This document shows positions 162 to 53,705 of a DNA stretch of 64,000 nucleotides, one piece after another. The DNA comes from a virus (lineage: Duplodnaviria > Caudoviricetes): positions 129,746 through 193,745 of the IMG/VR virus record IMGVR_UViG_3300033067_002132; one strand, written 5' to 3'. How positions within the stretch are numbered: the stretch's first letter is position 1; each line of letters begins with the position of its first letter. The notes under the pieces are model-generated. The model was given only the letters and a program-made list of their open reading frames with translations. It did no database searches and had not been told where the DNA came from. Made by a program: the position numbers and the translations under genes.

Positions 162-2306
162 TTAAATTAACTTATTAATTTGTTCTATAACCATTTCGGG
201 CGTAATTTCTTTTGTACATTCAAAATGTTTATCTGTTCCTTTATAAACCGGACACCATTCCCAATCACCACGATCAAATTCAAATCTATTATCATTAAAA
301 CATCCATGACATACATTTTTATTAATTACTCTATATGGAGTTTGAAATTCACTAAAAGTATGAGAAAAACCACTAATTAAAATAGTAGATTTATTTAAAG
401 CCCAAGATAACCACGATAAACCCGAACCTAATCCTATATTAAAATCCGCATCTTTAATATATTTAGCAATTTCTATTAATGATTCATTATGTATGTCTAT
501 AACACCATTAAATCCAGAAAGACTGTTTTCTTTAATAGCTAAAACTTTATATCCTTTATTATTTAAATAATTTATAATATTTTGCCATCCTTTATGTCTA
601 TTCCAATATTTTGCTTGTGCAGTAGATTCAGTAAAAAGACAAACATATTTATCTTTAATTTTCCTTTCATTATTAGGAATAAATATATTTGGTTTTAATT
701 CAATAAAATCTAATCCAAGAATATCTGAAGCAATTTTTTGTAATGGAATTAATCTAGGATCATTTTTATGTATATTTTTATCTAAATAATTAAAAATACC
801 TAAACGATAAGACGCATATAAATTATCAACAGTTGATCCAGGCTCAACAAATTCCATATGACTATAAGTATTCTTAAAGAAATAATTATGAAAAGTAGAA
901 ACAACACAATGACAACTATGTTTTTTTCTAAATTCTTCTACATATGGAAACCAAGCCAATGTGTCGCCTAATGCACGACTTTCAAAAGCAAAGAAAACTC
1001 TTTTATTAAAACAAGAAAAAACATGTTCAAACAAAAAATTTTCTGATTCTGCTTTTATTTTATAGTTTGTAAAATCTTGTTTAGAAGATTTGGCCCAACT
1101 ATTATTTCCTATTGTGGTTTGATATAAAATAGAATTAGAATCTTGATCAATAAAAGAAATTTTATTTAATCCCTCGTCTTTATTTTTTATTTCGATGAAA
1201 GCACCATCTATAAAATTAATAGATATTATTGGTTTAGAAGGTAATGGAGAGTTTTTTATTTCTTCTTTTTTTCTATAATCTGTATTATATATAAAATCTA
1301 ATTTTCGTTCAAAAATATGTTGGCTATTTAAATAAAATTTTGAATTTCGAAATTTATTATTAATATATTGATTATATAAATCTAAAGTTTTTTGTCCTGT
1401 TAATTTCCAATCATATTTCAAAGCGATTTCTCTTGCTTTAGATTGATACGATTGATAATTACTTAAAATGATTTTAATTCCTTCGATAATTTCATTTTCA
1501 TCTCTAGATGTTTTAATTATATCTTTTTCTCCTCCCCAATAACAACCAACAAAAGGAAGTCCGGTTGACATTGATTCGATCATTGTCAAATTAGGATGAC
1601 CGGTTTCTATATTTGAAGGATGAAGAAAAATATGATGATCTTGATATAATTTAATTAATTCTGATTCATTTTTGTCATATACAATATTTAATTTTGGATA
1701 ATCTATAATGTTAACATCAAAAAAATCTTTATTACTATTGGTCGGTCCTGCGATTGTAATAAAATAATTTAATCTTTTTGCTACATTGATAGCAGGAAGA
1801 AAACCCTTTCGATCTTCTGTTTTATTTCTAAGAGTTCCATTATTAGCAACACATAATAATTTAACATTATCGATAGGTGTTTTTCTTTCATAAAAAGAAT
1901 ATAGATTCGTATCTACTCCTAAAGGAAGAAAAACAGTATTTTCTCTAAAATCAAAATAAGATAATAAAAATTCTCCAGGAAAAGTAGTAATAATAGATTT
2001 ATCTATTGCCTCGCAATTATTTAAATAAACCTGAGATTCTTTTCCATATATACAAGCATGATGATCACACATCGAAAAGAAATATGGAATTCCTAAAGAA
2101 GCAAGTTCTCTAGCTTGATTTTCTATATAAACATGAACTATATCAAATTCTTTATTTAAAAGTCTTTGATCGTGTAAATCAACAATGAAAAATTCATGAC
2201 CTAAAGATTCGAAAAATAATTTATAATTCCAAATCATTTTTTCGATTGCTCCCCAATTTTTAGGTGGGATTTCAATATTTCCTGTTAAAATATGCGCTAT
2301 TTTCAT
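162..2306 (-). CDS. GT4-type glycosyltransferase fused to a TibC/Aah-like (autotransporter heptosyltransferase family) protein O-glycosyltransferase
   Basis: N-half GT-B motifs (IPPKNWGAIEK, FLHPSNIETGHPNLTMIESMSTGLP); C-half ESRALGDTLAWFPYVEEF, STAQAKYWN, GLGSGLSWLSWAL, ISGFS and Cys cluster CHGC...WCP...FECTKEIT. Confidence 0.85.
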   Translation of the reverse strand: MKIAHILTGNIEIPPKNWGAIEKMIWNYKLFFESLGHEFFIVDLHDQRLLNKEFDIVHVYIENQARELASLGIPYFFSMCDHHACIYGKESQVYLNNCEAIDKSIITTFPGEFLLSYFDFRENTVFLPLGVDTNLYSFYERKTPIDNVKLLCVANNGTLRNKTEDRKGFLPAINVAKRLNYFITIAGPTNSNKDFFDVNIIDYPKLNIVYDKNESELIKLYQDHHIFLHPSNIETGHPNLTMIESMSTGLPFVGCYWGGEKDIIKTSRDENEIIEGIKIILSNYQSYQSKAREIALKYDWKLTGQKTLDLYNQYINNKFRNSKFYLNSQHIFERKLDFIYNTDYRKKEEIKNSPLPSKPIISINFIDGAFIEIKNKDEGLNKISFIDQDSNSILYQTTIGNNSWAKSSKQDFTNYKIKAESENFLFEHVFSCFNKRVFFAFESRALGDTLAWFPYVEEFRKKHSCHCVVSTFHNYFFKNTYSHMEFVEPGSTVDNLYASYRLGIFNYLDKNIHKNDPRLIPLQKIASDILGLDFIELKPNIFIPNNERKIKDKYVCLFTESTAQAKYWNRHKGWQNIINYLNNKGYKVLAIKENSLSGFNGVIDIHNESLIEIAKYIKDADFNIGLGSGLSWLSWALNKSTILISGFSHTFSEFQTPYRVINKNVCHGCFNDNRFEFDRGDWEWCPVYKGTDKHFECTKEITPEMVIEQINKLI

Positions 2307-2572
2307 TGTAAATTATTTAAATATTCAGCGATAATATCTCCATGACAAATTTGAGGAGAACAAAAACAACCAAGTTTTTTATCTTTTAATTTTAATACAG
2401 CTTCTTTAAATATAGGATCTTTTTCTATTCTATGATTAAAATAACTACGATATTTTTCTATTACTTCTTTTCTTTTTCCATGCGTTCCTATTACATATGG
2501 ATTTCCAAATAAACTTGGTCTTCCTATATAAACATCATATTTATCTAAATTTTTATTTACTACGGTTGTCAT
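2303..2572 (-). CDS. DUF4326-type small protein
   Basis: YDVYIGRPSLFGNPY ... LGCFCSPQICHGDI signature. Confidence 0.8.
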   Translation of the reverse strand: MTTVVNKNLDKYDVYIGRPSLFGNPYVIGTHGKRKEVIEKYRSYFNHRIEKDPIFKEAVLKLKDKKLGCFCSPQICHGDIIAEYLNNLQ

Positions 2573-5259
2573 ACTTTTTTATGTCCTAACCAATTATTTA
2601 AACTTTCTTTTTTATCAAGTAAAGAAAATCCTTTTGCTTGCATAAATTGATAATTTTTAATTGTTCCTAATTTTTCTCCTTTTAAATAATCACTTACCCA
2701 AATATCAAAAACATCCCAAGGTGTTGTTTCTAATAATTCTTTGACTCTTTGATAATTCGATTTTGTAATTAGATATGCATGCATTTCATAAATATTAGAA
2801 CTTATATAATAAAGACCCATATCTTTAGTATCTTCATTATTATAAGCGGGACCGAAACTAAATAATCTAATTTTATATTTTTCAATATCATTATATAATC
2901 CATCTAATAATTCTATAAAAATATTTGGATCAGAAATTAAAACAGAATCACATTCAAAAATTAATAAACCATCTAATCCTTCTTCCCATTCATTTAAAAT
3001 AGCATTTTTATGCGCTAAATAACATCCGTAATGACCAGGGGTTAATTTCATATGCCCAGGATCTAAACTAATATCATTTGGTCTAGAACAATTTTCTTTT
3101 GGGGGTAATAATGTATATGGATTATTTATATTTTGTTTATATTTTATTCCATATCTTTCTAATTGTTTAATCGATAGAATAGATTTCTTTTCTCTTTCAA
3201 CTTCTGGTTGAGATAATAAATGGACACCTTTCAATTTAAATTTTGTTTTAATAGTATTATTTTTTTTATTATGACAAATTAAAATAACATTTTCACAATT
3301 TGAATTAATAACATCGGTGATAACATCGCCAGCTTGACTATAAGATTCTATTTCAAAATTTAGTCTATTTAATTTATCTAATAGAATTTTTGTTTCTTCT
3401 TTTTTACTACTTAAATGGTGCAATTCTATTATTAATTCTTCTGTATTTATTAAAACGTCATCATTTAAATATTCAATAACTTCATATTCTAATCCTTCTA
3501 TATCTATTTTAATAAGATTAATAGGATAAGAAATTTTTTGTGTTTCAATAATATTTTCTATTGTATCAACATCTACAATTTCTAAGTCATAACCATCTTT
3601 ATATTGAGGAATTTTATCTATTTGTTCTTTTAACATAGAACAAAGAGTAGTATTTTCTTTACAAAAATATAATACTTCTTGATTTGTTGTTTTCCCTATT
3701 GCTTTTTTAATAGGAATAACTCTTGAATCATTAGAAAAATTATTAACCAATGCATTATATGCTCTTAGATTTGGTTCAATAGAATATATTTTTTTAGCGC
3801 CTTTAGATAAAGCAAACCGTGTAAAAACACCGCAATTAGCCCCTATATCAATTACTGTATTATTAATTTTATCATTTAATGTAGTATATTTTTTTAAATA
3901 AAAGAATTCATAATAATTATACCATGTTGGATCTATATGATTAGAACCATTAAATATAAATGAATCATATGCTATCGCTTTATTATTAATAATTAATTCT
4001 TTTGATTCAATTAATTGATTATTTTGATCCCAAAATTCTATTAGAAAACCTTTAAAATTATTTAAATGACCAAAATTTAAATTTCCTACAGGGATAACCC
4101 AATATTCTAAATTTTCTATTATATCAGATTCATAACTATGAATAACGAGTTTAGTAAAAATATCTTTAATACTTATTCGAATATTATTTAAACTTTTTGA
4201 TATAGAAAAATATATTTTATTTTCATCTTTAGAATAATAAAGATTATTAAAAGTTTCTTTTTTATTAAAAATAGAAAGATTATTTTTTTGTCTTATTTTC
4301 CATTGATTATAAAAGAAATTGATCTGATTTATACGATCTTCTTCATTTTCTGAAAGAAAGAAAACATTATCAGTATTATCATACATTCCATTATATACAT
4401 CTAAATTATATAGTAAAATTGGTAAATTATAGCTTATTGCTTCTCTAATTACTAAAGGATTTGTTTCTTTATTATTAATATTTCCTTTTGAAGCAAAATA
4501 AAATAAATCCGCTGCATTATAAAAATTTTCTACATCTTTTCTTTCACCCCAAAGTTTACAATTTTTTGGTAAATTTTCTAATAATGGTTTCCAATAATAT
4601 TCAAAATTTGGTGCAGTATTTCCTACAAAATGAAACATTATTTCTTTATCAAGAAAGAATTTTGCTATATTAATAATTTCTTTTTGATTTTTTCTTTCTG
4701 TAAATAAACCAATATTAATTATATGAAATTTATTATCATTTAATCCAAGATTTTTTAATCCCTGATTTTTATTTTTATTAATATGAATTAATGGATATTC
4801 TACTAATTCCATAGGAATATTTAAAGATTTAAATAAATCTATTTGATATTTACTTACAAATACAAATTTATTAGGAAAGTATTTTTTATTATTTATATCA
4901 AAAGACGAATCATGAGATGTTTCATAAATTTGATATTTTCGATTTATTGTATAAATATTATCTGCTAATTCTTTAGATAAAAAATATTCGGGCATTTCTT
5001 CTAAATGAATTATATCAGGATTAAAATCTTTAATTATATTAATTAATATATTTTTATCTTGACCTAAACTAATAAATTGATCTTGATTTAATAATTCTAT
5101 AATTTGATTTTTTTGAATCGTATATTCATCAGAAACATTATCATATTCTATAACTTTAACATCAAAGTTATTTATTAAATATTTTAATTTTGTTAAAAAA
5201 TATTGAGGGCATCCACCAGTAGAAAGATGCGGAACTATACATAAAATTCGATTCGTCAT
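2569..5259 (-). CDS. Trimodular enzyme: GT4 glycosyltransferase + FkbM-type methyltransferase + C-terminal GT25-like/GT-A domain
   Basis: PHLSTGGCPQY, IGLFTERKNQ, ETNPLVIREA (GT4); VIDIGANCGVF, IKIDIEGLE (FkbM); GHYGCYLAH...LIFECD, HAYLI (GT25-like). Confidence 0.8.
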   Translation of the reverse strand: MTNRILCIVPHLSTGGCPQYFLTKLKYLINNFDVKVIEYDNVSDEYTIQKNQIIELLNQDQFISLGQDKNILINIIKDFNPDIIHLEEMPEYFLSKELADNIYTINRKYQIYETSHDSSFDINNKKYFPNKFVFVSKYQIDLFKSLNIPMELVEYPLIHINKNKNQGLKNLGLNDNKFHIINIGLFTERKNQKEIINIAKFFLDKEIMFHFVGNTAPNFEYYWKPLLENLPKNCKLWGERKDVENFYNAADLFYFASKGNINNKETNPLVIREAISYNLPILLYNLDVYNGMYDNTDNVFFLSENEEDRINQINFFYNQWKIRQKNNLSIFNKKETFNNLYYSKDENKIYFSISKSLNNIRISIKDIFTKLVIHSYESDIIENLEYWVIPVGNLNFGHLNNFKGFLIEFWDQNNQLIESKELIINNKAIAYDSFIFNGSNHIDPTWYNYYEFFYLKKYTTLNDKINNTVIDIGANCGVFTRFALSKGAKKIYSIEPNLRAYNALVNNFSNDSRVIPIKKAIGKTTNQEVLYFCKENTTLCSMLKEQIDKIPQYKDGYDLEIVDVDTIENIIETQKISYPINLIKIDIEGLEYEVIEYLNDDVLINTEELIIELHHLSSKKEETKILLDKLNRLNFEIESYSQAGDVITDVINSNCENVILICHNKKNNTIKTKFKLKGVHLLSQPEVEREKKSILSIKQLERYGIKYKQNINNPYTLLPPKENCSRPNDISLDPGHMKLTPGHYGCYLAHKNAILNEWEEGLDGLLIFECDSVLISDPNIFIELLDGLYNDIEKYKIRLFSFGPAYNNEDTKDMGLYYISSNIYEMHAYLITKSNYQRVKELLETTPWDVFDIWVSDYLKGEKLGTIKNYQFMQAKGFSLLDKKESLNNWLGHKKV

Positions 5260-5277: not shown

Positions 5278-8200
5278 TTATTTCTTTTCTTCTAATATTT
5301 TAATTCTTCGTTTTAATTTTTCTATTTCTGCGCTTAATTCTTTTACAGAATTAACTAATAAATAAGTAATAGGAGAATCATAAACATGATATATATCTGT
5401 TCTTTCCGTATCATTAGGATCAAGAAATACATTTTTCTTTACTATACAATAAGGAATATTTTTAAGCTGATCTTGAGCTATAATACCTATACCTTTTAAT
5501 CCTTCTTGTGTTTCTCCACGACCATTATATTCAAATTCAAAAGGATTAATTTTATTTACTATATCTAATCCTTGTTTAAAAGATTTAATATTTCTTTTTG
5601 TTCTTGCATCTGAAACAGATCCAGAAGAACCATTTGCTCCTGATGATCCTGATGTTCCTGATGTTCCAGAAGAACCCGATGTTCCGGAAGATCCTCTAGT
5701 TCCTGAAGTTCCCGAAGAACCTCTAGTTCCTGAAGTTCCCGAAGAACCTCTAGTTCCTGAAGTTCCAGAGGTTCCTGCGGTTCCTGAAGTACCAGAAGAT
5801 CCCGAAGGTCCACTTGATCCTGTAGCTCCATTTAAACCTGATGTACCGCTAGATCCACCCCCTCCTGCTCCAGAAGTTCCAGAAGACCCCGCAACGCCTG
5901 TAACACCTGATGTTCCTGCGGTTCCCGAAGAACCAACAGCACCATTAGCACCTGATGTTCCTGCGGTTCCCGAAGAACCAACAGCACCATTAGCACCTGA
6001 TGTTCCTGCGGTTCCCGAAGAACCTGATGCTCCATTTGCTCCAGAACTTCCTGAAGTACCACGAGTACCTGAAGTACCAGAAGATCCTGTTCCTCCATCT
6101 GCTCCGTTTGCTCCTGAAGAACCAGAAGAACCTGAAGAACCAGATGCTCCTGAAGTTTTTTGTTTAATAATTCCATTTTCTATAATTAGAAAATTAGAAC
6201 TAGTTCCTGTATTAACTTTTTTAAGTTCTACTTCATTTGCTATAGAAAAAATATTATCATGTGTCGTAAAAGGTCTATCTGAAATTTCAAAACCACCTAC
6301 TACCGTTATTCCTGAATAACTAGAATAATTTGTAATAATTAATGGTTTAATATATCTAGTAGAAGGTGCAAAAGAAGTATATGCGAAACCAGTATCTTGA
6401 CCCGAAATTATTCCATAATACCATTTTCCTGTTACAGTAGGGGTTGTATCAGCCGCAATAAAATATTTTAATCCACCAGAATTTGTATTAATTAAATTAA
6501 AACCACTATCAAAACATAAAGCACCAGCATAAAACCGTCCAGAAGATGTATTTGCCCCACTTAAATGAGTTCTAGCTGCCCAAATTTTTCCATAATATAA
6601 AGTATCTGGATTAACCGCGATATATTGAGGAATAGCTAACCAATTTCCCGCAAAAGTTCCCTGATGTTTAATTTGATGTAATACTCCTCCTGGTACAGAA
6701 TAACCTGTTAATTCAGGTAAAAGTTTAATTGTAGTATTACTCATGGGGACTGAAGAAATTCCTGATGTCCACATTCCTGTTGTATATCCCCATGTTTCGC
6801 TAGAAATAGGAATAAGATTGGCACCAGCTAATCCACCCATTTGTAATTTAATAAATCCTGTTACTCTTAAACTATCATTAATTAATACATCAGGTTCATT
6901 TAAAGAATTAATTCCTGAAGTAAATAAATTTTGTATATATGCTTCTTGAAATCTATAATTATCTGCTCCTAAATTATAGGATTTAGTTACAGCAGGTCCA
7001 ATATCTCCATTAACTTGTAATAAAAAGGTATTTGTTTCAGGAGTAACACCGATACCGAAAGCATTATTTTTAAAAGAATATATAAATTGATCACCAGCAA
7101 ATTTTGCTAAAATATTATTTATTCCTGATCCTGTAGGTCCATCTGTTGTAACGGTAATAATTGTATTTTGACCATGAGCACCATCTAAAGTTCTTCCACC
7201 GGCATTAATTTTAAAAATATCATCACCACTATTTAAACCACTAGGAAGATTAATACTTCCGTTCCAACGATCATAATGAATAATAAAACGATCATTAATA
7301 GCTCTATTTAATATAGAATGACCCCCACCTATTACAGTATTTGTATAAGTTCTATATCCCGCTCCATTAAAATTAATTTGATTTATACTTGTAGCATCAA
7401 GATCTCCACTTGTAGGAGTTTGAATATAATCTCCTAAAATATGTACTGTTGTTTGAGGATTGGTTGTACCAATACCAATATTAGAACTAATTTCATGAAT
7501 AGGAGTTGTTGTATTTCCTATAGCAGTAGCAGAGGTAAATTTAACTATTCTATTTGTTGTTCCTGATACAGAAATACTACTACCAGATGTTCCCGAACTT
7601 CCTGAAGTTCCCGAACTACCTGATGTTCCTCTCGTTCCTGATGTCCCACTTGATCCAGAAGAACCATCCGCACCATTTATTCCACTTGTGCCTGAAGATC
7701 CTGTTAAACCAGAACTGCCAGACGTTCCTCTAGTACCCGAAGTTCCTGATGATCCTGTTACCCCTGAAGAACCAGAACTTCCTGAAGACCCATCGTTTCC
7801 TGATATTCCACTTGTTCCAGAAGAACCTGTAACCCCCGAACTACCTGAACTACCTCTTGTACCAGATGTTCCAGATGATCCGGTTAATCCAGAGGAACCA
7901 GAACTTCCTGAAGATCCAATTGCTCCGTCAAGGCCACTAGTTCCACTCGATCCTGTAACACCAGAACTTCCACTTGTTCCTCTAGTTCCTGAGGTTCCAC
8001 TACTTCCTGAAGAACCACTAGAACCCGAACTACCTGAAGATCCGCTTGTTCCTGAAGACCCATTAATTCCACTAGAACCGGATGAACCACTAGATCCAGA
8101 ACTACCTGATGATCCTGAACTTCCTGAATCTCCTGCTCTTGCAAATGTTAACACAATAGAATCATCTGTATTAAAAAGACCAGATCCAGTTATGTATGAA

Positions 8201-11200
8201 ACGTTAGCAGCTATATATCCAGGACTAAAAGTTGTATTAGAAGTAATATTAAAAATAGAAAAAATAGAAGAATTATATTCGCCAAAAATTCTTAATGTTC
8301 CTTTTATATTATTCGTACTATAATCTAATCCGCTTAACCAATTAAAAATATTCGCACCATCAGCATTAATATGATCGATATATAATTTATTGATACTTGC
8401 GTATGTCGTATTATTAAATTTTAAATATCCATTTCCTGGATCTACATTAGATGTTCCTGTATTAAATAAATATAATTGAGAGTCACCACCAAAAAGACCA
8501 TTAGAACCAGATGTTCCTGAACTTCCTGTAAGTCCTGAAGATCCTGATGTTCCTCTTGTTCCACTAGTTCCAGAAGATCCAGAAGAACCACTAGATCCCG
8601 AACTTCCACTAGAACCATCATTTCCTGTTAACCCTGAAGTTCCACTAGATCCTGATGTCCCGCGTGTGCCTGATGTACCTGAAGTACCACTTGATCCCGT
8701 TAACCCGCTTGAACCAGAAGAACCCGATGAACCATTAGCTCCATCAATACCTGATGTTCCTGATGATCCAGATGTACCTCGTGTTCCTGATGTTCCTGAT
8801 GATCCAGTTAAACCGCTTGAACCAGAAGATCCAGAAGATCCGCTACTTCCTGAAGAACCATCATTACCATTAATTCCACTTGTTCCACTAGATCCAGACG
8901 TTCCTCTAGTTCCCGATGTTCCACTTGACCCTGTTAAACCACTAGATCCTGAAGAACCAGAACTACCCGCGACACCATCTATACCTGATGTTCCACTTGA
9001 ACCTGACGTTCCTCTAGTACCAGAAGTTCCTGAAGAACCAGTAACTCCTGATGATCCGGAACTACCAGAAGATCCAGTTAATCCACTTGTACCCGAACTT
9101 CCTACTACTCCATCTATACCAGAAGTACCTGATGTACCTCTGGTTCCTGATGTACCAGAAGATCCATTAATACCTGATGAACCCGAACTTCCTGAAGAAC
9201 CAGTAGCACCCGAAGTTCCCGATGATCCTGATATACCTGAACTACCTGAAGAACCGCTTGAACCAGATGTACCCGCTGTTCCAGAAGAACCACTAGTACC
9301 TCTAGTACCTGAAGTCCCTGAAGAACCAGAAGAACCAGAATTTCCCGCTCTACTAAAAGTTAAAATAATATTATCATTTAAAGCAAATAATCCTGTACCT
9401 AATACATATTCTACATTTATAGCGGCATAACCAGAATTATAAATATTATTTCCTGTAATATCAAATTGATGAAAAATAGAACTATTATATTCTTGAAAAA
9501 TTCTTAATGTTCCTTTTATATTATTATTACTTAAATCTAATCCGCTAATCCAGGGTAATATATTTATATTATTTTTATTTAAATTATCAATATAAATTTG
9601 ATTAGCTCCAGAATATCCTGAAAAATTAAATCCTAAATATCCCGTTCCAGGATCTATATTTAATATTCCTGTATTAAATAAAAATGGTATAGAATCGCCA
9701 CCAAAAAGACCATTAGAGCCTGAGCTTCCCGATGTGCCTCTTGTACCAGAAGTACCAGAACTACCTGTAATTCCTGAAGATCCTGAGCTTCCTGAAGATC
9801 CAGAATTACCGTCTATACCTGATGATCCTGATGTTCCTCTTGTGCCTGATGTTCCTGAACTTCCGGTTATACCAGATGAACCAGAACTACCAGCAGATCC
9901 AGCGGAACCAGGATTACCATCTAATCCTGAAGTTCCTGACGTTCCCGAAGATCCATTTATACCAGAACTACCTGAAGTTCCTCTAGTACCAGACGTACCA
10001 GAACTTCCTGAAGATCCACTATTTCCTGAAGTTCCTGAAGAACCTGATAAACCAGAAGATCCAGGTGTTCCAGGCGCCCCGTCTATTCCTGATGTACCAC
10101 TAGAACCTGTTAATCCACTTGATCCTGAAGTTCCGCGAGTACCAGAAGTACCGGATGATCCATTAATTCCGGAAGATCCAGAACTACCACTAGAACCAGA
10201 AGTCCCGCTGCTTCCTGTTAAACCGCTTGATCCTGATGAACCATCTATACCTGAAATTCCTGAAGTACCACTAGATCCTGAGGTTCCTCTTGTTCCAGAT
10301 GTCCCCGAACTACCACTACTACCAGAACTTCCTGAAGAACCAGAACTGCCAGATGTTCCGCTAGATCCTGAATTACCATCGATACCCGAAGATCCACTAG
10401 AACCTGAAGTACCTCTAGTACCCGATGTACCTGAACTTCCTGTTAATCCTGAAGATCCCGAACTACCAGAAATTCCTGAAGATCCAGGTGTTCCCGGTAT
10501 ACCATCTAAACCAGAAGTTCCAGAACTACCACTAGATCCAGAAAGACCAGAACTTCCGCTAGTTCCTCTAGTACCAGATGTTCCAGAACTTCCTGTTATT
10601 CCACTACTACCTGAAGAACCAGACGTTCCACTAGTTCCTGAACTTCCATCTATACCAGACGTTCCAGATGTTCCTCTTGTACCAGAAGTACCTGATGTAC
10701 CAGAAGAACCCGCGGGACCACTTGAACCGGTTGCACCATCTAACCCAGACGAACCAGATGAACCACTACTTCCTGAAGATCCTGAACTACCACTTGTACC
10801 AGAAGTTCCTCTAGTTCCAGAAGTTCCAGAGGAACCACTTGTTCCAGAACTTCCATTATTACCAAACATAGTAAATGAAATTACTAAATTATCATTTAAA
10901 TTAAAAAGACCACTTCCTATAATATAATTAACAAAAATTTGAGCATATCCAGAATTATAAATATTATTACCGGTTATATTAAAAGATGTAAAATTAGAAG
11001 AATTATATTCTTTAAAAATTCTTAAATTTCCTTTAGGATTACTATTAGAAATATCAAAACCAGAAATCCAAGAAACAATATTTAATAAATCTTTATTATA
11101 GTAATCTATACATATTTGATTAACACCAGAATAACCTGAATAACCCGAATAGATTCCAGAATGATTAAAAGAAAAATAACCACTACCAGGATCAACATTT

Positions 11201-17975: not shown

Positions 17976-17976
17976 A

Positions 17977-40491: not shown

Positions 40492-40493
40492 AT

Positions 40494-41908: not shown

Positions 41909-41909
41909 A

Positions 41910-43079: not shown

Positions 43080-43080
43080 A

Positions 43081-43542
43081 TTATCTATAATTATCCGCCC
43101 AAGCTAATTTAAAATCATCATTTTGACCCGCCCAATGAAATCTATAATCATCACCTAAAGATTCCTTAATAGATAGATTAGAATAAAATTGAAGAACAGT
43201 ATTATCATCTAAACTTTTAAATCCATTTGCATATCCTTCAGGAATATATAAAATACTTGGAGAATATTCAGATAACGTAAATTTATAAATATTTTGACTA
43301 TCTGCTCCTCCAGATTTCCAATTTTCTACTTTATAACAAATAATATAAGCAGAACCAACTAATACTTCTACCCATTTTTTTTCATGTTTATGAGCATGAA
43401 AACCTCTTATATAATCTTTTTTATGATTTCTAACTGTATATTTTCTTTTTATATTATCTAAAGAAAAATCATTTACAAAAGAAACAATACCTCTATCATC
43501 ACAAGAAAGGCCACCCTTAATTAAAATTGGTTTTTCTTCCAT
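43081..43542 (-). CDS. Cupin NDP-sugar epimerase/isomerase (RmlC-like)
   Basis: DDRG, RGFHAH, LYIPEGYANGF. Confidence 0.8.
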   Translation of the reverse strand: MEEKPILIKGGLSCDDRGIVSFVNDFSLDNIKRKYTVRNHKKDYIRGFHAHKHEKKWVEVLVGSAYIICYKVENWKSGGADSQNIYKFTLSEYSPSILYIPEGYANGFKSLDDNTVLQFYSNLSIKESLGDDYRFHWAGQNDDFKLAWADNYR

Positions 43543-43543
43543 A

Positions 43544-44578: not shown

Positions 44579-45363
44579 ACTTTTGAAAAAATATTAATTT
44601 TATCTCTAAATTCTTCTATTGTCAAACCAGTTTTATGAGTAAAATATTCTCTACCGCTTCTTCTTTTTGATATATAATCTAATTTTTTATTTGTTTGTGA
44701 AATTCCATGATAAACATATGATTTATTTGAAATAATAAATTTAAATTTTTCTTTATGTTTTTTCCATAATCTATATGCAAAATAATCATCTAATCCATAT
44801 CCAGGATACCATCCCATATCTATATTATCTGAATAACCATTAACATTTAAATAATCTTCTCTCGTAACCATTATAGGATGTGAATATCCTATAATTTTAT
44901 CTTCTTTTAAATATTTATTATTTTTTACATTCTCAATAAATTTTTTATATGTATTTAATTCGGAAACTTCTCCTAAATTATCTACGGTTACTATAGGATT
45001 ATTTGTACCATATGGTTCTACTAATGCGCAGCTAGCACTACAAGGATAATTATTTTTAATTATATTAATTAAATCTTTATCCCATCCTTTATGAAATAAC
45101 ATATCATCGTTTGTATTTAATACATATTGATGATTATGCGCAAAAGGAAGAGAACAATCTACAGCAGGAACACCATAATTATGATATAAAACAATAAATG
45201 ATGTTTTATTTTCATATAAAAAATCTATAGATTCTTTATCTGCTTCGTTTAAAGTAACAACAATAGAAAAATCTGAATCTGTATTGTCTTCTATAGATTT
45301 AATACAAGATTTAAGTAGATTAGGACTTTTCCAAGAACATAATTGTATTAATATATCGTTCAT
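44575..45363 (-). CDS. GT2 glycosyltransferase
   Basis: LKSCIKSI, NTNDDM, GLDD, VYHG. Confidence 0.72.
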   Translation of the reverse strand: MNDILIQLCSWKSPNLLKSCIKSIEDNTDSDFSIVVTLNEADKESIDFLYENKTSFIVLYHNYGVPAVDCSLPFAHNHQYVLNTNDDMLFHKGWDKDLINIIKNNYPCSASCALVEPYGTNNPIVTVDNLGEVSELNTYKKFIENVKNNKYLKEDKIIGYSHPIMVTREDYLNVNGYSDNIDMGWYPGYGLDDYFAYRLWKKHKEKFKFIISNKSYVYHGISQTNKKLDYISKRRSGREYFTHKTGLTIEEFRDKINIFSKV

Positions 45364-46232
45364 ATTTTTATCATTTTAAAATCACTAACCCAAACTTCTA
45401 AATCCATAATATCTTTTCTTATTTCAGATGGATCTATATTTAATACAACCATTTTATAAAAATTATTTAATAATCTATTGTTATTTATTCCTAATTTAAT
45501 TATATGATGTAAATTATTATAATTTTCTTTTAAATATTTTTCTAAAGAATTTATAGTAAAATCAAGATTTAATACTTTTTTACATACAATTCTTAATGTT
45601 TTTCTTAAGGTTTCTTGATTAAAAAAAGACTCTCTATCTTTATAATATAGAAGAACATGATTAGATCTATCATATACATAATAATATTTAATATCATGTA
45701 ATATCCATTCTTTATCTGTGCGATATCTATTAGAATATAGATTTTTATTTAAAATATCTTTAAAAGGAAAATCAGTATTTCCTAAAATATCTACATAATT
45801 ATTTTGAGCATTATGTAATCCCCAATGTGGAGTTCCCAAAAAAAACATATCTTCATTATATTCAGCAAGACAAATTTTACTTGCTTGAACTACTGTTTTG
45901 ATATTTTGTGAAGAAAAAGTATTACAAATATTATGAATTTGATTAGATAATTCTAAACCAATTCTTTCAGATGAATCTCTTAAAATAAACCAATCTCCAG
46001 GTTCCATTATTCCACAACGAAGAAATTCATTCATTTGAAAATCATGATCATTTGTCCATTTTCTATAAATAACAGAACCATTTTTTTTACGTTGATTTAA
46101 AATATCACAAGTTTTATCTTTACTTCCGCCATCTACAAAAATAAGACCATCTAAATTTTGCCAAATATCTTTTGTTAACTCGTCTATTTGTATTTCTTCG
46201 TTTTGTGTGATTCCGCAAAGGTAAATTTTCAT
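45360..46232 (-). CDS. GT2/GT-A glycosyltransferase
   Basis: FVDGGSKDKT, WFILRDSSE, PHWG. Confidence 0.65.
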   Translation of the reverse strand: MKIYLCGITQNEEIQIDELTKDIWQNLDGLIFVDGGSKDKTCDILNQRKKNGSVIYRKWTNDHDFQMNEFLRCGIMEPGDWFILRDSSERIGLELSNQIHNICNTFSSQNIKTVVQASKICLAEYNEDMFFLGTPHWGLHNAQNNYVDILGNTDFPFKDILNKNLYSNRYRTDKEWILHDIKYYYVYDRSNHVLLYYKDRESFFNQETLRKTLRIVCKKVLNLDFTINSLEKYLKENYNNLHHIIKLGINNNRLLNNFYKMVVLNIDPSEIRKDIMDLEVWVSDFKMIKI

Positions 46233-46233
46233 A

Positions 46234-47025
46234 TTAAATAATCGGTTTTAATAACAGATCTAATTTTTTATAATTTATATCAACTTCTAATTCTTGATTA
46301 TCTATATCATAAGCTTTATATTTATTTTCTAAAGCCCAAGTTAAAATATTTTGATGTCTAGGACCAAACCATTCTATTTGAATAAAAGGCTTATCTCTTT
46401 TGATTAAATTTAAAATAGTATTTAAAACTTCTAAATCGTATCCTTCACAATCTATTTTAATAAAAGAAATTACATTATCAGAAACGTATTCACTATAATG
46501 ATTATTAAAATTTAATCCGGGAAGATAATGTTTTTCTGCATATCCAGAACCATCTGTTTTAATAGAAAATAAAGAAGTATATTTAGAAGGACCACCATTT
46601 GTCATTCCTACTTCATATTGAAATTCAAAAAAACCATCTTGTTCCATTAAAGCAATATTAAATGGTAAAACATTAGTACATTTATTTATTTGAAGATTCG
46701 GTATTAAAACTTGATTAAATGCTTGACTAGGTTCAAAACATAAAACCTTTCCATTTTTATTTAAAATGGACATTGGAATAGTAGTATTTCCATTTCCTGC
46801 GCCTATATCTAAACATACTGATCCATTTTTTATAAGATTTTTCCATCTATTTATAAAAAGATAATAATCATTTATATAATATTGATGTTCTAATAATTCT
46901 TTATCTTCTTCATACCGTCTATTCCAATGAAAAAATTCTATAGTTTTTAAAGTATTTTCATCAAAAAATTTTTCTAAATGAGTAAAAAATCTATTATTAT
47001 GAATTTTTATTAATTCTGTCTTCAT
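46234..47025 (-). CDS. FkbM family methyltransferase
   Basis: LDIGAGNG, FEP, IKIDCEGYD. Confidence 0.88.
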   Translation of the reverse strand: MKTELIKIHNNRFFTHLEKFFDENTLKTIEFFHWNRRYEEDKELLEHQYYINDYYLFINRWKNLIKNGSVCLDIGAGNGNTTIPMSILNKNGKVLCFEPSQAFNQVLIPNLQINKCTNVLPFNIALMEQDGFFEFQYEVGMTNGGPSKYTSLFSIKTDGSGYAEKHYLPGLNFNNHYSEYVSDNVISFIKIDCEGYDLEVLNTILNLIKRDKPFIQIEWFGPRHQNILTWALENKYKAYDIDNQELEVDINYKKLDLLLKPII

Positions 47026-47825
47026 TATATTTTTAATCTATGTAAAAAGCTTTTTTCATTAAAATGTGTATCTTCTAATGGAACAAAAACATTTTTTCCA
47101 CATTCAATTTTCCAGTGATCCGCCCAAAACTCTTTATTTCTTTTGATTCTATTTTGTATATCTAAATATCCTGTATGTACAACAAAAGGATAATTGTCAT
47201 TTTTAATTAAAAATAATTTTTCATTTATAGATAAAAATGGATCTATTAATGGATAATAATTTACTAAATTACCATTTGAATCTATTAATTCACAAGTATC
47301 ACTTTGATTTATATCTACATTCTGACCATTATTAATTTTAGCATAATTAACAGGGCCACGAAATAATCCTTCTTTATGAAGATACCATTTTTGATTTATA
47401 GCGCGACAATGTTCTTTATCTTTATATAAATCTATAACAGGAATTAGAAAAGATTTTATATTTTCTTTATTAATTAATTCATTAGCTAAATTTTTCCATA
47501 TATTTTTTTGATAAAATGGAATATATTCATCTAAATCTAATTGTATTTTAATAGGATTTGTGGTAGCTTGTAATGCAATATTTTTTAATTTTCCATCAAG
47601 AAAAGGATCAGAATATGATACATCTGATTCTATTATTCTTATATTTATTAATTGTTTTTCTGATATATAATTTTTAATCTGATTTAAAGTATCATCTTTT
47701 GATTTATTAATACATAATATGACTTCTTCACTAAATAAACATGCATTATCTATAAAAGATTTATAATCAAAATTACAATTAATAACATTAAAAGCGGAAG
47801 TATAAATAGAAAAATTTAATGACAT
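47025..47825 (-). CDS. GT2 glycosyltransferase
   Basis: SKDDT, KNIALQA, QLDLDE, HTGY. Confidence 0.72.
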   Translation of the reverse strand: MSLNFSIYTSAFNVINCNFDYKSFIDNACLFSEEVILCINKSKDDTLNQIKNYISEKQLINIRIIESDVSYSDPFLDGKLKNIALQATTNPIKIQLDLDEYIPFYQKNIWKNLANELINKENIKSFLIPVIDLYKDKEHCRAINQKWYLHKEGLFRGPVNYAKINNGQNVDINQSDTCELIDSNGNLVNYYPLIDPFLSINEKLFLIKNDNYPFVVHTGYLDIQNRIKRNKEFWADHWKIECGKNVFVPLEDTHFNEKSFLHRLKI

Positions 47826-47971
47826 AAAATAAAAACTCCACCGAATAATTAAAATAATAAAATAGTTTTAGCAGGTGGAGTTTGACTGATCACAATTAAT
47901 ATGTAGTCTATAATTTTGCTAACTTCATTTTATTATTATCTAGAATTATCTAGGTATATTATATTACACTT
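47826..47971 (-). promoter_or_regulatory. GTGTAA motif (47964-47969) and structured leader of the sugar operon
   Basis: AAGTGTAATAT; 10-bp inverted repeat 47833-47842 / 47874-47883 whose 3' arm carries GGAG 10 nt before the ATG. Confidence 0.5.
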
Positions 47972-48913: not shown

Positions 48914-51900
48914 TTAAAATAACTCACATTTACCACCAGCACAAGCGGCGGTTTCTTGTAATTTAGTAGTATCTTCTTCTTCTGTTAATTCTTTATAATT
49001 AACAGGTTTATAATTATTTATAATATTATTCCATTTTTCTTCATCTTCTTTAGTCGTTATTGATTCTAATGGAGCCTGTACATATAGTTTATCACCGGTT
49101 TTTGGTAATAATGAAACGGCGCAAAAATATTCTCTATTTTGATATAAATAATTAATTACTTCATCCCATTCTTCTTCTCCAACGAGAACTGTACAAGAAA
49201 CATTATGTTTAATTCCTTTTTTATTAACATCTGTTGTGCCATTTTCTACCCAATTTTCTTGAGTTAACTTAATTACTTCTAAATGTTGAAGGGCGGATAA
49301 ATGTTCTTTAATAATAGCATTCTCATTAATTTTTAATGGAAAACAAATAATATCATCTGTTTTATTAGCAGACCAAACAGATTCCTCACACATATGAGGA
49401 TTATGTTTTTTAAAGAATTTATAAACAGGATCAATTTTATTACATTGAACACGTCTAAAATAACGCCTTGCGTGATGCGGATGTATTCCTGATGCACTTT
49501 CTAAAACTAAACTTGATGTACCTTCCGGTTTAATACAAGTAATTCTTGCGGCAGGATTAATACTTATTTTGGCTGACCATTCTTTATTTATTTCTATTGC
49601 ATATTTAGCAGCACGTCTTTGATTCGCGGGATTTAATAAAATATCTGGATTATCCATCATTCCTGTAATAGATACTCCTAATAAAGCTTCTTCATCTGTT
49701 AATTCTTTTGATGTATTAGTTAAATAATTTAACTTATCTGTATATGAAGCTTGTAATGTTCCTAAAATAGTCGCGGCTTTTACTGCATCCAAAAATTTTT
49801 CTAATGAAGTAACTTTCGCACCATTAACACTAGTAAGATTACAAAACTGAACACCTGTAAGTCCTTGATTATTAATAGGTTCGAATGAAATCTCAAAACA
49901 TCTACGAGCCGTAATACCATTAGCAATAAGAGTTCTTCTATTATTTTCTTCTAAACAATAAACATCTTCTTTTCCTATATAATTTATAGAAATAACCCGA
50001 CTCTCAAATTTTATATTAGTAATTTTTGTTGCTTCTATTAATATTTTATTTAATTTATTATATTTTTCTGTAGATAGATACAATAATTTTAAACAAACAT
50101 TTCCTTGTTTAATTCCAGGAATTACTAATCTAAAAGATTCTTTAAAATGATATTCTTTTTCTTCTCTATTAGAATCCAAAAACATCCTATTTCCCTCAGG
50201 AAGAAGATTATATACCTTAGAAAAAATTCCAAGTTCTTGAAGTATCAACATAATATCTATTAATACTTGTTTATTTGATTGTGTTATTCTTACACTAACA
50301 GATCTAGAATTTTCATTATAATCTATATGTCCATCGGTAAAGATCATTCCTGAAACAAATCCTGCTTTGAAATTTTTAGATTTATTATGAATAAGTGATA
50401 TATCATCTTTATTTATTATATCAAAACTAGCTAACGCTTGTTTTAATCCTTTACAAATTAAAGAATACTTAATTTTTCTTCCTACTTGTGATTGTAATTT
50501 AAATTTCGGTATTAGTGTTAATGGTTTACTTCCATCGGATTTCAAAATTCCATTAGAATTTGCTATTCTTAATATATTAGAAACATGTGTTTCTATGGTT
50601 TTCATTAATATTTCTGATTCTTCTGAATCTTCATCTATCCAAATTGAAATCGCAGCATTTTTAGAATCTATATATCCATCTCCTAAAACTAATCCAGATA
50701 TAAATCCATTTATAAAATCTTGATTTTTCTCAAACGAAGAATCATCAATAATAGGTGTTCCAATTAAAACTTTATCTGTTCCTACTACAAGATCTTTAAT
50801 TTGAACCATTCCTCTAGTGGTCGCTAGATGATGATCTCCTGTTGCTTTCACATTTCGTCCACAAGATAATAAAACTTCAAAAACTTCTTTGTTATCTCCA
50901 GTTTTTGCTATTTTAGTCGCTATATTTTTAGATGTCCCAAAAGCATTCAAATCTAAATCCCAATATTCATTATTATTTAATAAATGACCTGTGACCCTAT
51001 TATCTTGATGAATATAAATATCTTCTTTACTATTTAATAATTCAGAAAATGTTTTCCATCCAGAAGATGTTAAAATTTTAGTATCTATAGTAAAACAAGG
51101 ATTAAACAAAGCCATTTCATTATCGGCAAAAACGAATCCTGGTTCGCCAAATTGCTTAGTTTTATTAATAATTAATTCAAATTGTTCTTTTGTACATTTA
51201 TTTCTTATTAATAGAACACTATTATTACTTCTAGCTCTTTGTGGTGCGATATGAAACCAGCTAATCTTTTTATCATTAATTACTTGATTATATTCATATT
51301 CAGAAATAGAAACTTCGTATTGCTTTTTATCTACTGTTATTTTTCCACTATATAATTTCGTTTCTTCGTCTAATGAAAATTTATTATGTTTACTTACTAT
51401 AAAGTAAGTTTTTGATTCCATCATATCGATATCATCAAAATTAAAGACAACAGAACAAGCTGATCTACGGATTCCACCTGATAAAACGGCATCTGCAATA
51501 TGCATTAAAATATCATATGCATTAATTGTTTTAATTCTTGTTTGATGTAAATCTTCTATAATATGATCAAGTAATTCTTTAACCTTTTTATGGCAATTTT
51601 TTAATCCTTTATATCCTGGTGCTTTTCCGCCTCCAGTTTTTAATGGGGCACCTTCGGGACGAATTTTACTATAATCAAAGACAATTTTTCTTCCTGTATA
51701 AGCAGTATTTTTAAAATAACAATTTAATAAAGCCTCAATAGAATCTGACCACCCTTCTATAGAATCTTCTACAACATAAGTAACTACAATACCAGTTTTA
51801 TTAGAAGCGTTAACTAAATCAGGAAGTCTATTTAAAAAATAATTAGTTAAACCAAATCCTACACCGCAACCACAAAGTAAAAGATAGAAACTTTCTGCAA

Positions 51901-52213
51901 AAGATCTAATAGAATCAATATGTCTGACGCTACAATTGAAAATTCTTGAATTATGAGCCTCAATTGCTTTACCACCAAATTGCATTGATCTCATTGAAGG
52001 TACTACATTCTTTTGTTTTACCTGATCAAAAGCCCATTTTATTTCACTTAAATCTTCTTTAGATAATTTCTTTTTAAATTTAGATAAATGCATAGACATT
52101 ACACGGTCTATACATTCTTCCCACGTTTCTCGTCTTCCTAAAAATTCATTAAACCTCGCATATTTATTAGTAAATATAAAATTAGATATTTCACTTAAAA
52201 AATTAACATTCAT
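48914..52213 (-). CDS. nrdJ: Class II (B12-type) ribonucleotide reductase containing an intein
   Basis: RRETWEE, PSMRSMQFGG, FNCS, GCGVGF, RRSA, GEPG, NP/CFEI, QFCNL, TCIKPEGT, C-terminal CAGGKC. Confidence 0.88.
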   Translation of the reverse strand: MNVNFLSEISNFIFTNKYARFNEFLGRRETWEECIDRVMSMHLSKFKKKLSKEDLSEIKWAFDQVKQKNVVPSMRSMQFGGKAIEAHNSRIFNCSVRHIDSIRSFAESFYLLLCGCGVGFGLTNYFLNRLPDLVNASNKTGIVVTYVVEDSIEGWSDSIEALLNCYFKNTAYTGRKIVFDYSKIRPEGAPLKTGGGKAPGYKGLKNCHKKVKELLDHIIEDLHQTRIKTINAYDILMHIADAVLSGGIRRSACSVVFNFDDIDMMESKTYFIVSKHNKFSLDEETKLYSGKITVDKKQYEVSISEYEYNQVINDKKISWFHIAPQRARSNNSVLLIRNKCTKEQFELIINKTKQFGEPGFVFADNEMALFNPCFTIDTKILTSSGWKTFSELLNSKEDIYIHQDNRVTGHLLNNNEYWDLDLNAFGTSKNIATKIAKTGDNKEVFEVLLSCGRNVKATGDHHLATTRGMVQIKDLVVGTDKVLIGTPIIDDSSFEKNQDFINGFISGLVLGDGYIDSKNAAISIWIDEDSEESEILMKTIETHVSNILRIANSNGILKSDGSKPLTLIPKFKLQSQVGRKIKYSLICKGLKQALASFDIINKDDISLIHNKSKNFKAGFVSGMIFTDGHIDYNENSRSVSVRITQSNKQVLIDIMLILQELGIFSKVYNLLPEGNRMFLDSNREEKEYHFKESFRLVIPGIKQGNVCLKLLYLSTEKYNKLNKILIEATKITNIKFESRVISINYIGKEDVYCLEENNRRTLIANGITARRCFEISFEPINNQGLTGVQFCNLTSVNGAKVTSLEKFLDAVKAATILGTLQASYTDKLNYLTNTSKELTDEEALLGVSITGMMDNPDILLNPANQRRAAKYAIEINKEWSAKISINPAARITCIKPEGTSSLVLESASGIHPHHARRYFRRVQCNKIDPVYKFFKKHNPHMCEESVWSANKTDDIICFPLKINENAIIKEHLSALQHLEVIKLTQENWVENGTTDVNKKGIKHNVSCTVLVGEEEWDEVINYLYQNREYFCAVSLLPKTGDKLYVQAPLESITTKEDEEKWNNIINNYKPVNYKELTEEEDTTKLQETAACAGGKCELF
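49901..51097 (-). mobile_element. 399-aa intein with LAGLIDADG homing endonuclease at the NPC active site; non-canonical C-terminus ...GITARR/C
   Basis: Block A CFTIDTKILT, block B ATGDH, GLVLGDG and GMIFTDG, block F DVYCL; removal restores LFNPCFEIS. Confidence 0.88.
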
Positions 52214-52624: not shown

Positions 52625-52625
52625 T

Positions 52626-53705
52626 TTATTCTAACGTTTCTAAAATTTTAGTAACTGTATTTTGTACAGTAAAATTTTCTTGTAATTTTAATCCTTCGAC
52701 ATTAATCTTATTTTGTTTGAATCTATTTACCGCCAAATCAATTGCTTTATAAAAATCATCATCAGAAAAAGAAAATATATTTCCTTGATTAAATGGTTGA
52801 CCTTTATGAAAAAACATGCCATCGTAAACTTCTTGTTTACTATTAGGATTAATTAATATACTATTTTTATCGTTTGCCCATTCTTTATAACCCGCACAAT
52901 TTAAAACAATCGCATGTTTTCCTAATGCTACAGAATGAAATTCTGGTAATCCCCAACCTTCTGTACCTAAAGCAAACACAATATCACCAGAATTAAGAAA
53001 ATCATTATACATTTCATTCTTAGGCATTAATCCTAAGAAATCGACATTAAAATATTTAATTCCACCGCAAATATGATGCCAGATTTTTTGATTATCTTCT
53101 GGGCTTATAAAAGGATTATAAATAGCACAATTAAGAAAATATTTAGGATTATTACCATATTTTTTAATCCATAATTTAATTAGTTTTTCATGATTTTTTC
53201 TTTTTTCAAATTTACCGACAACATTAAAAGTAATTCTTCCGTCATTAAAGAAATTTTTATTTTTTACATAGAAATTATACTTATCGAAATAAAGAGGTAC
53301 AACCTTTACATTATCACAACCGCATAGTGAAAAAATATTTTGTGCATATTTATTTGTAACTAATACAGAATTTTGATTTTTAATTATATTAATCTCTTCT
53401 TCTGTAGGAGAATCAAGTTCGTAAAAAGTAAGAAGATTCTGTTTTTTACTAAAAGATTCTAAACCTCCATTTAAATGCCAAAGTTTTAAAATTTGAGTAT
53501 CTCTTTTATGTGTTTTTATGGCTTTATTTATATTTGATTGCAACCAAGAACCAAAATTCTGATCTATATTTTGAGAAGATACGTCAGGATTTCCTATTGT
53601 AAAAATAGAAGGTTGATGATTAATTTCATGTAAGTATCTTAATATACCAAAAGAAACTTGGCCAAAAGAAACACTATTTAAAGGGAGGTTTAGAGCGTAT
53701 TCCAT
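52626..53705 (-). CDS. GT4 glycosyltransferase
   Basis: NSVSFGQV, VGKFEKRK, EGWGLPEF. Confidence 0.8.
   Translation of the reverse strand: MEYALNLPLNSVSFGQVSFGILRYLHEINHQPSIFTIGNPDVSSQNIDQNFGSWLQSNINKAIKTHKRDTQILKLWHLNGGLESFSKKQNLLTFYELDSPTEEEINIIKNQNSVLVTNKYAQNIFSLCGCDNVKVVPLYFDKYNFYVKNKNFFNDGRITFNVVGKFEKRKNHEKLIKLWIKKYGNNPKYFLNCAIYNPFISPEDNQKIWHHICGGIKYFNVDFLGLMPKNEMYNDFLNSGDIVFALGTEGWGLPEFHSVALGKHAIVLNCAGYKEWANDKNSILINPNSKQEVYDGMFFHKGQPFNQGNIFSFSDDDFYKAIDLAVNRFKQNKINVEGLKLQENFTVQNTVTKILETLE

Follow-up and report, generated by a model that had tools for sequence, protein, structure and literature searches.

A collagen-like fibre gene and two glycosyltransferase fusions lie in one apparent operon

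We analyzed a 64,000-nucleotide (nt) stretch of DNA from an uncultured water phage, hereafter the window, in which a gene for a collagen-like tail fibre is followed by genes for two multidomain glycosyltransferase (GT) fusions, one of which carries a domain related to the Escherichia coli enzyme TibC. The window is the final 64 kb of one 193,745-bp phage contig (IMG/VR record IMGVR_UViG_3300033067_002132; ~29% G+C; complete according to CheckV), for which a megablast search with 25 kb found no near relative among GenBank phages. Window genes, domains and hairpins described below are on the minus strand unless otherwise stated. Fusion 2 (2569-5259) starts 18 nt after the gene for the 2484-amino acid (aa) fibre (5278-12732) and is followed by an 89-aa DUF4326 gene (2303-2572; E 4.5e-26) and then by fusion 1 (162-2306), with the DUF4326 gene overlapping each GT fusion by 4 nt. 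Fusion 2 comprises a GT4 domain (residues 1-440; 3940-5259), an FkbM-type methyltransferase domain (residues 441-650; 3310-3939) and a GT25-like GT-A domain (residues 651-896; 2569-3309). In fusion 1, a GT4-like N-terminal domain (1242-2306) is joined to a TibC/Aah-family domain (162-1241).

A promoter-like GTGTAA motif on the minus strand (12756-12761) is found 29 nt before the fibre ATG, and the fibre-GT unit closes with a terminator-like hairpin (107-137) whose 13-bp stem precedes a T run. Given the motif at the front, the hairpin at the end and the tight spacing, the fibre gene, fusion 2, the DUF4326 gene and fusion 1 look like one transcription unit. This arrangement agrees with an earlier, sequence-only reading of the window, which had placed the two GT fusions directly downstream of the Gly-Ser/Thr repeat fibre in one apparent operon. 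GTGTAA is likewise present 23-30 nt before the ATG of tail gene M, of a 3457-aa gene and of other structural genes. The hairpin carries GTGTA in its loop, and a full GTGTAA (5´ end at 124) extends out of the loop along the descending stem; since the hairpin lies just ahead of the start of the next gene, a single element may serve two units, as terminator of the first and promoter-like start of the second.

Directly upstream of the fibre gene are lambda-like tail-tip genes recognized with Pfam (12762-21112): M, L, a K-like NlpC/P60-JAB gene, a 254-aa gene and a 1737-aa J-like gene. The cassette sits between the fibre gene and the remaining structural genes, with more minus-strand open reading frames (ORFs) beyond the window edge leading to the 3457-aa gene. 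When ten structural-region proteins downstream of the cassette were compared with PHROGs, nine had no match and one matched homing endonucleases.

The fibre is rich in serine and threonine and nearly free of proline

The fibre protein matches Pfam Collagen in 16 stretches (E 6e-179) and Peptidase_S74 at its C-terminus (E 4e-8), and its gene directly follows the J-like gene, as found for a phage collagen-like fibre with an S74 chaperone. Its 452 Gly-X-Y triplets, 1356 residues in all, form six blocks of 105, 130, 96, 62, 33 and 26 triplets. Ser or Thr occupies X in 341 triplets and Y in 352, amounting to 77% of the X/Y positions; Pro is present at only 7 of these positions and Lys at none. GSS accounts for 191 triplets, GTS for 108 and GTR for 28, and the 13-mer GTSGTRGTSGSSG occurs 19 times. 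Four globular copies of ~130 aa alternate with collagen blocks, followed by a distal domain of ~476 aa, two collagen blocks and the S74 domain. Glycosylated threonine can stabilize the collagen helix, as seen for Riftia cuticle collagen and in host-guest peptide studies, and Arg at the Y position is also helix-stabilizing.

The four globular domains (residues 57-185, 497-625, 1008-1130 and 1412-1533) are paralogous, with 47-59% identity; they have no Pfam match, and the sole homologue found is in the closest relative of the window phage, locus L003, described below. Plus-strand ORFs of 117-397 aa within the fibre repeats (7688-12262), which are locally G+C-rich, were considered and set aside as shadow frames rather than genes. 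The sequence-only reading had spoken of acceptor proteins in the plural, which is not supported, as the genome encodes one collagen-like protein and no other. That reading also had not named the collagen-type Gly-X-Y nature of the repeats, which bears on the comparisons with BclA and with collagen-modifying GT25 enzymes made below.

The TibC-type domain retains the catalytic core and has an altered donor site

The C-terminal 362 aa of fusion 1 align with residues 26-386 of the 406 residues of TibC in PDB entries 4rb4/4rap (phmmer E 2e-61) and score 319.6 bits against NCBIfam TIGR04414, for which the cut-off is 200. Judged by its sequence, this part of the protein is a genuine member of the BAHT family. 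In TibC, Asp110 is the catalytic base, Thr226, Lys230 and Trp305 contact the donor, and Cys 339, 342, 358 and 370 form an iron finger (Yao et al., 2014, PMC4358343). The window domain retains Asp110 (aligned to the D110A crystal sequence), Thr226, Lys230, Trp305 and all four iron-finger cysteines; the latter are aligned as CHGC...WCP...FEC, and the finger required for dodecameric ring assembly is present. Two positions are changed, Arg286 to Ile and Pro300 to Gly. Arg286 of TibC hydrogen-bonds adenine N1, a residue described as not compatible with guanine, and confers ADP-sugar specificity (PMC4358343). Since this adenine-reading Arg is Ile in the window protein, the donor used by the phage domain is probably not ADP-heptose.

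The same pattern was seen upon alignment of 47 phage sequences, comprising the window protein and a single representative per lineage for the 46 lineages defined below. Asp110, Trp305, the four cysteines and a Thr or Ser at position 226 are present in 47/47 sequences and Lys230 in 45/47; Arg286 is retained in only 19/47.

We found the TibC-type domain to be widespread: a search of 1.84 billion representatives yielded 779 clusters at E <= 1e-30. Each of the best 150 environmental relatives, most of them 600-2000 aa in length, scores >300 bits against the window domain, where E. coli TibC reaches ~210 bits. Of the best 50, 19 carry a GT4 fusion and 14 an FkbM fusion to TibC, with other fusions to a CmcI-type rhamnosyl O-methyltransferase, GT2 or other methyltransferases. 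Four environmental relatives (P0001, P0003, P0011 and P0028) have three to four matched TibC stretches per protein and may contain tandem TibC domains. A scan of bacterial genomes with the domain returned only 9 loci, none with a collagen ORF; the low-GC loci look like phage DNA in metagenome-assembled genomes, and the high-GC loci have ordinary large neighbors. Within the window, the neighbor of the TibC-type gene is the collagen-like fibre, and Pfam scans showed no autotransporter domain that could mark an adjacent autotransporter acceptor. We also considered the GT9-like gene at 25749-26930 as a TibC paralogue and rejected it (BLASTP E 0.099; PDB E 0.59).

Fusion 2 combines GT4, FkbM-type and GT25-like domains

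The GT4 domain of fusion 2 matches Pfam Glycos_transf_1 over threshold (44 bits), and the FkbM-type domain matches both PF05050 (E 4e-11) and TIGR01444 (79.9 bits). The GT25-like domain scores 17.3 bits against PF01755, below the cut-off of 24. Its AlphaFold2 (AF2) model has a pLDDT of 87, with human COLGALT1 as the top Foldseek matches (9evk/9evj; E 1e-8, TM 0.59, 15-17% identity) and bacterial GT25 enzymes next among the structural neighbors; profile matches to GT25 chains reach E 0.025. This model supports a GT25-type fold for the C-terminal domain of fusion 2. The likeness to COLGALT1 does not show a collagen-specific function since the fibre repeats are without lysine: with no Lys at X or Y in any of the 452 triplets, they offer no hydroxylysine acceptor.

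The DUF4326 gene between the two fusions is present in none of 81 other loci with a TibC-type domain, and for this reason we rejected it as part of the conserved cassette.

TibC-type cassettes co-occur with Ser/Thr-rich collagen-like fibres

A scan of IMG/VR with the TibC domain gave 142 relatives confirmed at 41-52% identity, from which 80 loci were kept. The locus of the cultured Microcystis phage Mel-JY01 (L082) was added, and the resulting 81 loci were dereplicated at 80% TibC identity to 46 lineages. BLAST with the window proteins detected the fusion-2 GT4 domain in 57 of the 81 loci, the fusion-1 GT4-like N-terminus in 46, where it is fused to or beside TibC, and the GT25-like domain in 27. 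The usual order is a big fibre-like gene, a GT4 gene (with or without FkbM, Methyltransf_24, GT25 or GT2), a further GT4 gene and TibC. The cassette is found inside the structural modules of both sipho- and myovirus-type genomes; in one complete 183-kb genome (L021), it lies just before the tail sheath gene, and the partner protein is GT4-FkbM-GT2-CmcI. The same myovirus-type genome has two 2OG-Fe(II) oxygenase genes (PF13759; 60-1365 of the locus, plus strand) a few genes upstream of the GT cassette.

A Pro-free Gly-X-Y ORF with nearly saturated Ser/Thr is present in 22 of the 46 lineages. In 17 of these 22, the ORF touches the cassette, against 5.6 expected by random ORF placement (p <= 5e-5). 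In seven more lineages, the gene immediately upstream encodes a fibre-like but non-collagen protein of 1000 aa or more (1700-2500 aa where inspected) with a high content of Ser, Thr and Gly. We considered whether the residue at TibC position 286 tracks the type of neighbor and dismissed this idea: the collagen class has both Arg and non-Arg residues, and the giant class, in which all have Val, is probably one lineage.

The association was also examined in reverse, starting from the repeats. Contigs with a DNA pattern encoding GTSGTRGTSGSSG (at least 120 matched, 95 searched for TibC) were compared to control contigs with a pattern of five Gly-Pro-X triplets (118 matched, 48 searched). TibC was detected in 29/95 of the GTSGTRGTSGSSG contigs and in 1/48 of the controls (Fisher p 2e-5); among contigs at least 50% complete, the counts were 12/15 and 1/20 (Fisher p 6e-6). 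The sequence-only reading had itself proposed checking whether the TibC-like GT accompanies G-S-S fibres in other phages, and the outcome was strongly positive in both directions and against the control.

Across 50,697 GenBank phage records, the TibC domain was found only in Mel-JY01 (PP395634) and three huge-phage records. In Mel-JY01, the domain is the C-terminus of a 1226-aa protein annotated as 'methyltransferase FkbM', encoded one annotated gene downstream of a 'structural protein' and ~7 kb before the terminase gene. A long GSS/GTS/GTR collagen-like protein with GSSGTSGTRGTSGSSGTDG-type repeats is encoded at 2-2518 on the plus strand, running off the start of the record. The opposite strand is annotated with hypothetical proteins at 1-651 and 739-2298, the second of which is a proline-rich PVPE-repeat ORF; the annotation of this stretch is probably mistaken. 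Full-text searches of the literature returned no paper linking TibC-type enzymes with phage fibres.

Further evidence for an association comes from the closest relative, a 124-kb contig (L003/G001) that has in common with the window phage L, M, three plus-strand genes, p246, the GT9-like gene, the GT4+DUF4214 gene, DnaE and the rest of the replication module. In this relative, a TIG-domain gene is followed by fusion 2, then fusion 1 and then the fibre, and the flanking genes are syntenic. The different site and order, together with the syntenic flanks, indicate that the three genes moved as a block. The fibre of the relative has short Ser/Thr collagen linkers between large globular domains.

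A sugar island and scattered GT genes are located apart from the cassette

The inventory given by the sequence-only reading was correct on recount: 11 GT domains in nine genes, four methyltransferase domains (FkbM twice, Methyltransf_24 and a Methyltransf_13/14 C-methyltransferase), Gmd and RmlC-like, RmlD-like and short-chain dehydrogenase/reductase (SDR) enzymes. Searches with each GT domain, as that reading had proposed, placed the TibC-like and fusion-2 GT4 domains over thresholds and left several GT4, GT2 and GT25-like domains below them or with ESM Atlas or fold matches only. Besides the GT4 domain of fusion 2, the GT4 set consists of a stand-alone gene at 52626-53705 (26.4 bits, at threshold) and, below threshold, the fusion-1 N-terminus (23 bits) and a 649-aa GT4+DUF4214 protein (26933-28882; 25 bits). 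The latter gene and the 393-aa GT9-like gene (together 25749-28882) were identified with Pfam beside DnaE and are kept in the relative. The GT9 match has 31 bits and spans only ~65 residues; an AF2 model from two sequences has a pLDDT of 39. Two GT2-like genes have Pfam matches below threshold (41117-41908, E 0.009; 44575-45363, E 0.0017), and two were recognized from ESM Atlas neighbors only (45360-46232, TM 0.61; 47025-47825, TM 0.84; feature score 0.98).

Ten genes, assigned with Pfam, NCBIfam and ESM Atlas, form a sugar island at 39421-47825 in the order Gmd, Methyltransf_24, GT2-like, zinc-ribbon C-methyltransferase (Methyltransf_13/14), RmlC/FdtA-like cupin, 344-aa SDR, GT2-like, GT2-like, FkbM and GT2-like. 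The RmlD-like reductase gene, called from its domain profile, is separate (34539-35477). Gmd matches PF16363 (E 1e-97) and scores 313 bits with TIGR01472, under the equivalog cut-off and far above other dehydratase models. As no sugar nucleotidyltransferase of the CTP_transf_like or NTP_transferase type was found in the genome, host GDP-mannose is the one visible point of entry and must be the substrate from which Gmd starts. Gmd used as a lone query for related loci gave no relatives and hence no control set.

The sequence-only reading had GTGTAA starting both the fibre and sugar operons. This stands for the fibre; the copy belonging to the sugar operon (47964-47969, minus strand, intergenic) is 144 nt upstream, in a 12-mer, GTGTAATATAAT, identical to the one before gene M. 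A further GTGTAA is found at 48843, ahead of a small ORF.

We also searched for genes expected of other glycan pathways. No flippase, polymerase, ligase or polytopic GT was found, and in a hydropathy scan no ORF of 263 had more than two hydrophobic segments. The genome has one ThyA-family gene (PF00303), and the search for base-modification genes, confined to this family, gave no second paralogue of the hydroxymethylase type. The best PDB matches of the ThyA-family protein are all thymidylate synthases (E 5e-76), and a dCMP deaminase and a dUTPase are also encoded, such that the dTMP route looks canonical.

Among the other genes in this part of the window, a class II (B12-type) ribonucleotide reductase (48914-52213) is split by an intein with a LAGLIDADG homing endonuclease. 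The DnaE-type polymerase (29367-33349) has its PHP domain encoded as a separate 252-aa gene two genes upstream, as is also seen in the relative.

A candidate fibre-glycosylation module and its alternatives

With somewhat better than even confidence, we favor an interpretation in which the fibre, GT4-FkbM-GT25-like, DUF4326 and GT4-TibC genes constitute a late-expressed module for cytoplasmic O-glycosylation of the fibre. The TibC-type domain would O-link the first sugar to fibre Ser/Thr residues in the cytoplasm of the infected cell, with the Gly-Ser/Thr-Ser collagen blocks as the likeliest sites. The fused GT4 domains and the GT25-like domain would then extend the glycan and the FkbM domain would O-methylate it, while the fibre would be trimerized by its S74 domain and attach behind the J tip protein. 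The sugar island could feed the same glycan, converting host GDP-mannose via Gmd to modified 6-deoxyhexoses, possibly C-methyl-branched and O-methylated, and contributing further GT2 enzymes; here our confidence falls a little short of even. Domain identities, conserved residues, gene order and co-occurrence statistics are what was observed; from them we infer what is modified, with which sugars, in what sequence of steps and to what biological end. For the proposal of the sequence-only reading that the phage glycosylates its own particle, the fibre core is well supported by comparison; more tentative are a sugar factory serving the virion, a complex and methyl-capped glycan, and the suggested roles as shield, host-surface mimic or fibre stabilizer.

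Several observations weigh against this interpretation. Some lineages have neither type of neighbor, with no fibre nearby in, for example, L021 and L002, and 3/15 of the well-covered GTSGTRGTSGSSG contigs are without TibC. The control contigs generally come from smaller phages, so phage type confounds the contrast between GTSGTRGTSGSSG and Gly-Pro-X repeats, which we consider still telling. Several GT assignments are under family thresholds. The known acceptors of TibC are beta-helical passenger domains, and by analogy the modified sites could be in globular or beta-helical parts of the fibre instead of the collagen blocks. With respect to the sugar supply, the island lies 27-42 kb from the cassette among replication genes, and Gmd-family genes were found in 10/20 other TibC contigs, which are fragmentary and for which there is no background rate. 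The island of the relative, at the same site beside Gmd and RecA, has other content (GT4, a GFO/IDH/MocA oxidoreductase, another SDR and DUF5672). This variability fits selection on an exposed glycan and is silent on what carries the glycan. Also present in the island of the relative (L091; 4863-14173) are a transaldolase-like gene and a cREC_REC (cyclic-phosphate processing receiver) gene beside Gmd.

The placement and turnover of the island are also the grounds for dividing the functions, with the cassette acting on the fibre and the island and scattered GTs (25749-28882, 39421-47825 and 52626-53705) working from the cytoplasmic side on an envelope glycan of the host, for instance as a barrier to superinfection or to keep progeny from binding to debris. 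The island is in the replication module, distant from the cassette; in the relative, other genes take the place of its own, much as happens in O-antigen islands; and GTs of pelagimyophage host-recognition clusters have been published as host O-chain modifiers (PMC7029224). Such a division is nevertheless unlikely in our estimation, given that GTGTAATATAAT upstream of the island is identical to the motif before tail gene M, that the genome is without the flippase, polymerase, ligase or polytopic GT noted above, and that the cassette, with just three to four transferase domains and no sugar-nucleotide enzyme, needs donors from elsewhere. It is distinctly improbable that the whole set consists of auxiliary genes remodelling the host surface (lipopolysaccharide (LPS), S-layer or an adhesin), with the adjacency to the fibre reflecting a hypervariable host-recognition region. 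In its favor, the hypervariable regions of aquatic myophages group GTs with tail fibres, an arrangement that has been interpreted in this way (PMC7029224), and the known substrates of TibC are bacterial surface adhesins (PMC4358343). This explanation leaves unaccounted for the tie to Ser/Thr-type rather than Gly-Pro-type collagen repeats, the above-chance adjacency and the joint relocation with the fibre, and no export machinery was found in the genome. Modification of host lipid-linked intermediates on the inner face of the membrane is still conceivable, chiefly by the sugar island.

Glycosylation of phage DNA as protection against restriction is a classical role for phage GTs, and two of the GT genes are beside DnaE. 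The single ThyA-family gene with its canonical matches, the dCMP deaminase and the dUTPase all speak against this role, as does the fact that TibC-family enzymes act on proteins, and we regard DNA as a very improbable acceptor for some or all of the GTs. Both the host-surface and the DNA alternatives are weakened by the lack of glycan-export proteins and the single canonical thymidylate synthase, respectively.

Comparison to known systems and implications

The closest enzymatic parallels to the proposed fibre-glycosylation module are the E. coli BAHT systems TibC-TibA and Aah-AIDA-I (PDB 4RAP/4RB4; PMC4358343), with which the phage enzyme shares beta-barrel and GT-B homology, the catalytic Asp, the phosphate and sugar contacts and the iron finger. 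The gene arrangement is also alike, with the enzyme gene beside that of a long repetitive Ser-rich protein, to be modified in the cytoplasm. In contrast to the E. coli systems, the phage neighbor is a collagen-like tail fibre rather than an autotransporter, the enzyme is fused to GT4, Arg286 is Ile, and the phage genome is without a heptose pathway. Fusion of TibC to GT4, together with a GT4-FkbM-GT25-like partner, implies an oligosaccharide and not single heptoses.

There is precedent for virion glycosylation by tailed phages. Mycobacteriophage GTs encoded in or next to structural genes modify virion proteins, according to a summary of Freeman et al., 2023 (PMC12619734). The GT genes are embedded in a structural module in both cases. 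In that summary, which does not mention a TibC-family enzyme, the proteins glycosylated in these actinobacteriophages are capsid and tail-tube subunits, modified at their C-termini (PMC12619734); the acceptor proposed here is a collagen-like fibre. Pelagimyophage GT clusters resemble the locus in having GT and sugar-nucleotide genes interleaved with tail fibres in hypervariable regions (PMC7029224), and our findings suggest that the fibres may themselves be the target of some genes in clusters of this kind.

Glycosylated collagen-like filaments are known outside of bacterial viruses. BclA of the Bacillus anthracis exosporium is a trimeric collagen-like filament with O-linked rhamnose-anthrose oligosaccharides that have a methylated terminal sugar (PMC9614988, PMC6222408). 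Compared by description, it resembles the proposed phage fibre as a collagen-like filament carrying 6-deoxyhexose O-glycans and differs in being a bacterial spore protein made with a dTDP-rhamnose pathway and unrelated transferases. The BclA repeats also contain Pro, with a Gly-Pro-Thr composition. Mimivirus L230 glycosylates L71, a collagen-like protein of the virus, and the fibrils of giant viruses are glycosylated (PMC9614988). COLGALT1 and L230 are similar to the phage system in the GT25-type fold neighbor and, for the virus, in modification of its own collagen-like protein. Both act on hydroxylysine, however, and the phage repeats are without Lys, with no lysyl hydroxylase seen in the window; GT25 also includes LPS galactosyltransferases. 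A more speculative extension, which we consider rather doubtful, is that O-glycans on Ser/Thr replace hydroxyproline: the phage TibC branch would coat Pro-free triple helices, with the sugars needed for folding or rigidity and giving each phage a variable surface 'serotype'.

Glycosylation of virions by phage enzymes has so far been documented mainly for mycobacteriophages, and the customary view of fibre-adjacent GTs in aquatic phages is that they modify host LPS. If the fibre is indeed glycosylated, a conserved and widespread cassette tied to Ser/Thr collagen-like fibres would move many such genes to virion maturation. The BAHT family would then extend beyond autotransporters and probably beyond ADP-heptose, and bacterial viruses would have a counterpart to glycosylated collagen-like filaments such as BclA and the Mimivirus fibrils. 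The idea is directly testable since the cultured phage Mel-JY01 has the same pairing. If borne out, it would bear on the stabilization of proline-free collagen helices and on the surface variation of phage fibres.

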